Positions 18,349 through 18,985 of a stretch of 64,000 nt of DNA are shown piece after piece (positions within the stretch are counted from its first letter, which is position 1; every line of letters begins with the position of its first letter). The position numbers and the translations under genes were made by a program. The stretch is taken from the NCBI RefSeq assembly GCF_044324875.1, contig NZ_CP172185.1. One strand, written 5' to 3'. The notes beneath the pieces are model-generated. The model was not told where the DNA came from. It made no database searches and saw nothing but the letters and a program-made list of their open reading frames with translations. The DNA is from Escherichia coli. Its GTDB lineage: Bacteria; Pseudomonadota; Gammaproteobacteria; Enterobacterales; Enterobacteriaceae.

Positions 18349-18927
18349 ATGAGTGAAAAAAGCATTGTTCAGGAAGCGCGGGATATTCAGCTGGCAATGG
18401 AATTGATCACCCTGGGCGCTCGTTTGCAGATGCTGGAAAGCGAAACACAGTTAAGCCGCGGACGCCTGATAAAACTCTATAAAGAACTGCGCGGAAGCCC
18501 ACCGCCGAAAGGCATGCTGCCATTCTCAACCGACTGGTTTATGACCTGGGAACAAAACGTTCATGCTTCGATGTTCTGTAACGCATGGCAGTTTTTACTG
18601 AAAACCGGTTTGTGTAATGGCGTCGATGCGGTGATCAAAGCCTACCGTTTATACCTTGAACAGTGCCCGCAACCAGAAGACGGACCGCTGCTGGCATTAA
18701 CCCGTGCCTGGACATTGGTGCGGTTTGTTGAAAGTGGATTACTGCAACTTTCCAGCTGCAACTGCTGCGGCGGCAATTTTATTACCCACGCTCACCAGCC
18801 TGTTGGCAGCTTTGCCTGCAGCTTATGTCAGCCGCCATCCCGGGCAGTAAAAAGACGTAAACTTTCCCAGAATCCTGCCGATATTATCCCACAACTGCTG
18901 GATGAACAGAGAGTACAGGCTGTTTAA
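18349..18927 (+). CDS. flhC: FlhC, flagellar master regulator subunit
   Basis: 192 aa [28 protein letters not shown]...; zinc-binding cysteines CNCCGG...CSLC. Confidence 0.95.
18858..18884 (+). promoter_or_regulatory. sigma28 (FliA) promoter for motAB-cheAW located inside the 3' end of flhC
   Basis: TAAA-15 nt-GCCGATAT (taaactttcccagaatcctgccgatat) matches sigma28 consensus TAAA-N15-GCCGATAA. Confidence 0.75.
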
Positions 18928-18985
18928 CTTATACGGTGTGGTGCAACATTCCAGCAGCGGTAACGACGTACCGCTGCTTTTTTTT
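18885..18985 (+). ncRNA. motR: Probable MotR sRNA region (motA 5'UTR-derived, sigma28-dependent), ending at the intrinsic terminator after flhC
   Basis: sigma28 promoter immediately upstream and intrinsic terminator 18954..18985 (stem gcagcggta/taccgctgc + T8); boundaries are approximate and taken from memory of the published MotR description. Confidence 0.4.

Follow-up and report, generated by a model that had tools for sequence, protein, structure and literature searches.

Introduction

In Escherichia coli K-12 the small RNA MotR derives from the motA 5' UTR, and its promoter lies inside flhC and is common to motAB-cheAW (Melamed et al. 2023, PMC10578931). MotR is lost in that strain when fliA is deleted; it is seen as an Hfq-bound band of about 95 nt, with longer bands that represent read-through of the MotR terminator, and a chromosomal seed mutant, motR-M1, has fewer flagella and lower motility (Melamed et al. 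2023, PMC10578931). The same work describes a second mutant, MotR*, in which the TGC at positions 6-8 is changed to GAG and which is described as 'more abundant'; it places a MotR site in the rpsJ coding sequence at about +150, and speculates that S10/NusB promotes read-through (Melamed et al. 2023, PMC10578931).

The promoter has been described in its own right (Fitzgerald et al., bioRxiv 10.1101/188474). It is a FliA-bound and active promoter internal to flhC in E. coli, is conserved in Salmonella, and is the most conserved of the FliA promoters. Fitzgerald et al. (bioRxiv 10.1101/188474) also reported that the promoter is the reason for the conservation of Ala177-Asp178 of FlhC, whose codons overlie the -10 element, that the FlhC D178A protein is fully functional, and that species losing Asp178 carry an intergenic FliA promoter instead.

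Here a homologous locus from another E. coli strain is described. The sequence features, the homology to the K-12 gene and the conservation come from the present analysis; sigma-28 dependence, Hfq binding, RNA size, read-through and targets are taken from the K-12 literature.

The locus and its strain context

The window (the whole 64-kb stretch of E. coli DNA that was analysed) carries on its + strand, in order, flhD (to 18346), flhC (18349-18927), motA (19054-19941, with a GTG start), motB and cheA. The sigma-28 promoter and the first 37 nt of MotR lie within flhC. The main features are as follows.

18349..18927, + strand: flhC coding sequence, 192 codons plus stop (open reading frame list; 100% DNA match to an E. 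coli genome with flhC and motA annotated)
18858..18884, + strand: sigma-28 (FliA) promoter, TAAA-N15-GCCGATAT, an 11/12 match to TAAA-N15-GCCGATAA (pattern search)
18891..18985, + strand: MotR small RNA, 95 nt, the 5' part of the motA leader, homologous to K-12 motR b4828
18953..18985, + strand: intrinsic terminator, stem 18953-18962 / 18969-18978, 6-nt loop, T8 at 18978-18985 (terminator scan)
18986..19053, + strand: remainder of the motA 5' leader, found in read-through transcripts alone (folds)
19054..19941, + strand: motA, GTG start, first gene of motAB-cheAW (open reading frame list and annotation of an identical genome)

Across the element, a stretch of 401 nt matches the chromosome of E. 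coli O158:H23 strain CFIAFB20140388 at 100% identity. Of 5426 complete E. coli genomes, 5376 contain the 128-nt unit from promoter to terminator at an identity of at least 95%. It is worth adding that the IS1H insertion found upstream of flhD in K-12 MG1655 (4504-5271 of the K-12 locus, L001) is absent from the window. Its flanks are contiguous at 17690-17697, with an overlap of 8 bp in the BLAST alignment, giving an IS-free flhDC promoter region.

The promoter inside flhC

The promoter consists of a -35 element, TAAA, at 18858-18861, a 15-nt spacer, and a -10 element, GCCGATAT, at 18877-18884, all on the + strand. The start of the motif precedes the final base of the flhC stop codon by exactly 70 nt. 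The +1 position, A18891, falls 7 nt past the -10 element, the expected sigma-28 start being 6-8 nt downstream. The pattern TAAA-N14-16-GCCGATAW has two matches in the 64-kb window where 0.06 are expected from shuffles, and at least two matches were found in 0/100 shuffles. The promoter is the K-12 sequence, being identical from the -35 element to +39 in a pairwise alignment. A scan of 17700-19300 for sigma-70 promoters found none.

The other sigma-28 consensus of the window, TAAAGTTTCCCCCTTCCTTGCCGATAA at 23444-23470, lies between the open reading frame that follows cheA (cheW by position), which ends at 23357, and the next one (tar by position), which has its ATG at 23503. It is presumably the known tar operon promoter. 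A hairpin with a T run is found just 5' of it (region 23384-23503).

The terminator and the motA leader

The terminator stem has 10 pairs in the terminator scan, six of them G-C. The hairpin is present in the minimum-free-energy fold of MotR, with pair probabilities of 0.85-1.0, and MotR as a whole has a predicted fold of -29.3 kcal/mol (z = -2.4). An earlier note on this DNA had proposed a near-consensus sigma-28 promoter in the last 70 nt of flhC, a strong terminator between flhC and motA, and a unit of about 100 nt bounded by the two. All three were found as described: the promoter at 18858-18884, the terminator, whose '9-bp stem + T8' is the present 10-bp stem minus its A-T closing pair, and a unit that runs for 95 nt from 18891 to 18985.

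MotR ends at this terminator, which is also the first one past flhC, 26 nt after the flhC stop codon, a point that the earlier note did not make. It therefore most likely ends the flhDC mRNA as well, as judged from this position. In one clinical strain, E. coli 20Y000092 (L092), there is an 11-bp deletion at the equivalent of 18975-18985, which takes away the last part of the 3' arm together with all of the T run, and so represents a natural terminator-less motR allele.

Transcripts that pass the terminator contain a further predicted hairpin at 19010-19055, in which CAUCCU (19019-19024) pairs with the motA Shine-Dalgarno sequence AGGAUG (19043-19048) and which reaches the GUG start. It is predicted in most of the Enterobacteriaceae loci and not in Erwiniaceae, and two loci (L029 and L039) have the compensatory variant AGUCCU/AGGACU. 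Folded alone, the downstream motA leader has a stability not above that of shuffles (z = -0.47), the support for the hairpin being comparative only. As a model, the hairpin may control motA translation.

The hexamer GGAUGA occurs both at 18900-18905 (MotR nt 10-15) and at 19044-19049, in the motA Shine-Dalgarno region. Such GGA motifs are similar to the sites that CsrA binds.

Identity of the element

The RefSeq annotation of K-12 MG1655 contains the entry 'ncRNA motR, b4828, small RNA MotR' at 1977208-1977302, which spans 95 nt, the first 37 of them within the end of flhC. This sequence aligns with 18891-18985 of the window without gaps, with 92 of the 95 positions and the whole of the terminator identical. 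The three substitutions are at 18930, 18939 and 18942, that is MotR nt 40, 49 and 52. The description of MotR* as a change of 'TGC at positions 6-8', together with the sequence ACAACTGC that reads from A18891, fixes the start point at 18891. The 3' stem-loop with a U tail is present in the window, Hfq binding being known from K-12 only.

No Rfam family matched 17000-21000 at E <= 1, Rfam 15 apparently being without a MotR model, and the automatic annotation of the identical O158:H23 genome has no RNA gene at this site. A naive reading might thus take the locus as unannotated, and the assignment to MotR rests on homology to one curated K-12 entry. It is for want of an Rfam model that MotR goes without annotation outside K-12; the alignments from this analysis could seed one.

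We consider it very probable that the locus is E. coli motR, with a sigma-28 start, partial termination that gives MotR, and read-through that gives motAB-cheAW. RNA polymerase with sigma-28 (FliA) would start at A18891 from the promoter within flhC codons 170-179. Part of the transcripts would stop at the terminator at 18953-18985, yielding the 95-nt Hfq-binding MotR, and the remainder would read through to form the motAB-cheAW mRNA. In K-12, MotR uses a seed at about nt 43-54 to pair with sites within the coding sequences of rpsJ and fliC, and it raises flagellar gene expression and flagella number. From the sequence we infer that the window allele acts like K-12 MotR.

The earlier note had also named the element as MotR, had read-through produce the motAB-cheAW mRNA, and had the promoter constrain the 3' coding sequence of flhC. 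The first of these agrees with the homology to b4828 (92/95 nt) and with the promoter, size and sigma-28 dependence reported in K-12 (Melamed et al. 2023); the second with read-through in the same K-12 work; and the third with the frozen synonymous sites described below and with the main result of Fitzgerald et al. All parts of that interpretation hold, and promoter, small RNA, read-through and coding constraint are all published and annotated in K-12. Since the element is the known unit of MotR, motA promoter and flhDC terminator, it has no novelty as such.

Conservation across Enterobacterales

Loci were fetched by FlhC similarity from Enterobacterales genomes. Of the 80 loci obtained, 76 were usable (both genes readable), and every one of these 76 has TAAA-N15-GCCGATAN exactly 70 nt before the end of flhC. 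A further 12 relatives were added via protein clusters. The promoter is at the same place in 11 of them, namely Dickeya, Rahnella, Yersinia, Edwardsiella, Xenorhabdus, Photorhabdus, Proteus, Providencia, Moellerella, Cronobacter and a second Klebsiella aerogenes locus. In the twelfth, Sodalis sp. C49, motA does not adjoin flhC and a good promoter motif is lacking.

The terminator core, AGCAGCGG...CCGCTGCT followed by a T run, is found throughout Enterobacteriaceae and Erwiniaceae. The lower eight pairs of the stem are nearly invariant, and compensatory changes occur in the top three pairs across 45 sequences. A terminator of this MotR type is absent from three Serratia loci, four Pectobacterium/Brenneria loci carry a different hairpin, and among the 12 further relatives only Cronobacter has it. 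The spacer of Yersinia enterocolitica (L096) has the hairpin core AGCAGCGGUA...UACCG within a longer stem that lacks a T run. The MotR-type terminator may have arisen from, or decayed into, a plain hairpin.

Frozen synonymous codons in flhC

Codons were compared in 74 ungapped Enterobacterales flhC genes. Over codons 1-166, 23-61% of third positions differ from the window. In codons 167-187, 12 of the 16 degenerate conserved codons use a single codon, against 0/130 elsewhere (Fisher p = 1.5e-14). All of the synonymously frozen codons of flhC fall in 167-187, where they form three blocks.

18847..18864, + strand: -35 block, flhC codons 167-172 (GTA AAA AGA CGT AAA CTT), comprising the -35 TAAA and its A-rich upstream flank; 5/6 codons synonymously invariant
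18877..18882, + strand: -10 block, flhC codons 177-178; frozen synonymous sites in the 74 flhC genes
18892..18909, + strand: MotR nt 2-19 block, flhC codons 182-187 (CAA CTG CTG GAT GAA CAG); 5/6 codons synonymously invariant, codon 186 varying in one

The clustering of frozen codons beneath the promoter and beneath the opening 19 nt of the transcript is an unusually clean case of regulatory and RNA constraint within a coding sequence. The third block is transcribed sequence and not promoter, and its frozen codons point to a constraint at the level of the RNA. The accessible text of Melamed et al. 2023 and of Fitzgerald et al. makes no mention of a constraint on MotR nt 2-19.

Codons 182-187 show both silent and amino-acid-changing variation in Dickeya, Rahnella, Serratia, Edwardsiella, Proteus, Providencia, Moellerella and the K. 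aerogenes locus, and these taxa are all without the MotR-type terminator. The same codons are largely kept in Pectobacterium, Brenneria, Xenorhabdus and Photorhabdus.

The seed allele and target pairing

Two of the three differences from K-12 lie within the seed.

18933..18944, + strand: seed region, MotR nt 43-54, ACGGUGUGGUGC, containing the site of the M1 mutation at nt 46-48 (18936-18938) (alignments; rpsJ duplex prediction)

The M1 mutation alters G46-U47-G48, as given by primer SM467 in the supplement (Melamed et al. 2023, PMC10578931). In addition to the change at 18930, the window has U for A at 18939 (nt 49) and U for C at 18942 (nt 52). For K-12, nt 43-54 are predicted to form 12 contiguous pairs with +141..152 of K-12 rpsJ, in agreement with the published site at about +150. 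Against the same K-12 rpsJ sequence, the window allele has G46-U47-G48; A49U places a U·U mismatch at the centre of the duplex, C52U produces a G·U wobble, and by a crude estimate the duplex is about 5.6 kcal/mol weaker. The duplex scans were run without accessibility terms and gave long, partly spurious duplexes, so that only contiguous cores were used. Because of the mismatch and the wobble in the predicted duplex, rpsJ regulation of the K-12 type may be weaker in this strain, as modelled on the K-12 rpsJ sequence.

The K-12 version of MotR nt 38-68 is found exactly in 2969/5426 complete E. coli genomes (about 55%), and the window version in 53/5426 (about 1%), 22 of them exact. At least five alleles of the seed region occur among about ten sampled E. 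coli strains. E. albertii, Salmonella and most of the other genera sampled have U at nt 49, and A49 therefore looks derived. Given this polymorphism, and with A49 of K-12 lying off the consensus, the link between MotR and S10 may not hold in all strains.

Outside the seed, MotR nt 5-15 (18895-18905) have an 11-nt perfect complement, UCAUCCAGCAG, at +1418..1428 of K-12 fliC (L083), in the conserved C-terminal coding region. A complement of this length is reached in 14/1000 shuffles. The match could be the second contact between MotR and fliC hinted at in Melamed et al., or it could be chance.

A possible cis antiterminator

Within the third frozen block, a segment of MotR is complementary to the 5' side of the terminator.

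18895..18902, + strand: predicted antiterminator strand, MotR nt 5-12, CUGCUGGA, complementary to 18950-18957
18950..18957, + strand: predicted partner, MotR nt 60-67, UCCAGCAG, consisting of three conserved bases outside the terminator stem and the first five of its 5' arm

The complementarity between the two is perfect. In a nascent RNA of nt 1-78 the helix between them is predicted with a probability of about 0.99, and the full-length RNA is predicted to favour the terminator over this helix (-29.3 vs -25.2 kcal/mol). The helix is predicted in 67 of the 69 loci that have a MotR-type terminator, and it is abolished in prediction by the MotR* change. U60-C61-C62 are conserved though they lie outside the terminator stem, and the sole substitution at nt 11, a G to A in two loci (L050/L077), is matched by a change of C61 to U. 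This compensatory pair (11:61) is the only one in the helix, and 251/500 shuffles reach the same count; covariation is not significant because almost nothing varies in these columns. In a control with the upstream 59 nt shuffled, 2-10% of trials sequestered the 5' arm just as well. A matching terminator arm is missing in Pectobacterium, Brenneria, Xenorhabdus and Photorhabdus, which nevertheless retain CAACUGCUGGAUG.

These predictions suggest a model in which the first 19 nt of MotR, encoded by flhC codons 182-187, act as a cis antiterminator by pairing with the 5' flank of the terminator shared by flhDC and MotR; we regard this model as tentative and, on balance, unlikely. In the flhDC mRNA, ribosomes on flhC would mask MotR nt 1-37, and termination there would be efficient. 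In the untranslated sigma-28 transcript the terminator would be leaky, which would allow motAB-cheAW expression. The pattern of frozen codons yields a testable idea of how one terminator serves two overlapping transcription units. If it is true, a second constraint at the RNA level, apart from that of the promoter, shapes the C-terminus of FlhC.

Because Melamed et al. propose S10/NusB-dependent read-through, a BoxA (NusB/S10 site, GCTCTTTAACAA) was also sought. The candidate at 18919-18930 (GCTGTTTAACTT; GCTGTTTAAC) has three mismatches, and the window contains 55 such matches vs 53 expected; it was rejected. A literature search for published termination data (Term-seq) at the MotR site returned nothing specific, and neither motA nor MotR appears in the main text of Adams et al. 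2021.

Alternative explanations

It could be argued that there is no dedicated unit here at all, the promoter-like motif being kept only for the amino acids of FlhC and the hairpin being only the flhDC terminator. The motif does lie in coding sequence, and Ala177-Asp178 are conserved residues. However, synonymous change is absent exactly where the -35 and -10 elements lie, and selection at the level of the protein cannot explain this. Furthermore, D178A is functional, and loss of Asp178 is paired with an intergenic FliA promoter (Fitzgerald et al., bioRxiv 10.1101/188474), and both FliA-dependent promoter activity and FliA-dependent MotR have been reported for the identical promoter sequence of K-12. 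The synonymous-site pattern and the published mutant and promoter-fusion data together rule out chance or protein-only origin of the motif, and the view that there is no dedicated unit is extremely improbable.

A less distant alternative accepts the promoter and the terminator, and sees the element mainly as a cis attenuator of motAB-cheAW and terminator of flhDC, rather than as a trans-acting small RNA. On this account the helix between nt 5-12 and 60-67 would delay the terminator as it emerges and so set the fraction of read-through, and the 95-nt RNA would be mostly a by-product where the seed mismatches the K-12 targets. The behaviour of the predicted helix fits such a role, since it is strongly favoured in the nascent RNA, gives way to the terminator at full length and recurs in nearly all loci with the terminator; so do the conserved U60-C61-C62 and the matched G11A and C61U. 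MotR*, which is changed at nt 6-8 and described as 'more abundant', destroys the predicted helix; nt 2-19 are relaxed in Dickeya, Rahnella, Serratia, Edwardsiella, Proteus, Providencia and Moellerella, all without the terminator; and the seed is polymorphic within E. coli. The covariation is nevertheless not significant, the sequestration control is weak, and the four genera that keep CAACUGCUGGAUG without a matching arm do not fit. Moreover, the motR-M1 phenotype and the binding of Hfq and target RNAs in K-12 mean that a function in trans exists, at least there. We think it improbable that attenuation is the main role. The roles of cis attenuator and trans-acting small RNA are not mutually exclusive, and the preferred reading remains that of E. 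coli motR with partial termination and read-through.

Comparison with known systems

The trp leader is an example of an attenuator with mutually exclusive terminator and antiterminator helices. As in leaders of this type, an upstream segment of MotR is predicted to be able to pair with the 5' side of the terminator, and in the flhDC mRNA the outcome could depend on the translation of flhC across this segment. Unlike the trp leader, the MotR unit has no leader peptide, and the proposed switch is based on prediction and one compensatory change.

Among small RNAs, the kin of MotR are UhpU, FliX and FlgO, which are the other sigma-28-dependent UTR-derived small RNAs of E. coli (Melamed et al. 2023). 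These come from 3' UTRs, FliX and FlgO by processing, whereas MotR comes from a 5' UTR by premature termination (Melamed et al. 2023).

The overlap of promoter and coding sequence is the bacterial 'duon' of Fitzgerald et al. (bioRxiv 10.1101/188474; published in 2018 according to the citation in Melamed et al.), which shares with the present locus its promoter, its conservation and the constraint on Ala177-Asp178. For the -10 element, the argument of that work is made from amino acids, whereas the constraint described here is at synonymous sites and extends to the -35 block and to the block of MotR nt 2-19.

The closest described system is MotR of K-12 itself (b4828; Melamed et al. 2023, eLife 12:RP87151), which has the same locus, promoter, +1, length of 95 nt and terminator, and from which the window differs by three substitutions in or beside the experimentally mutated seed.
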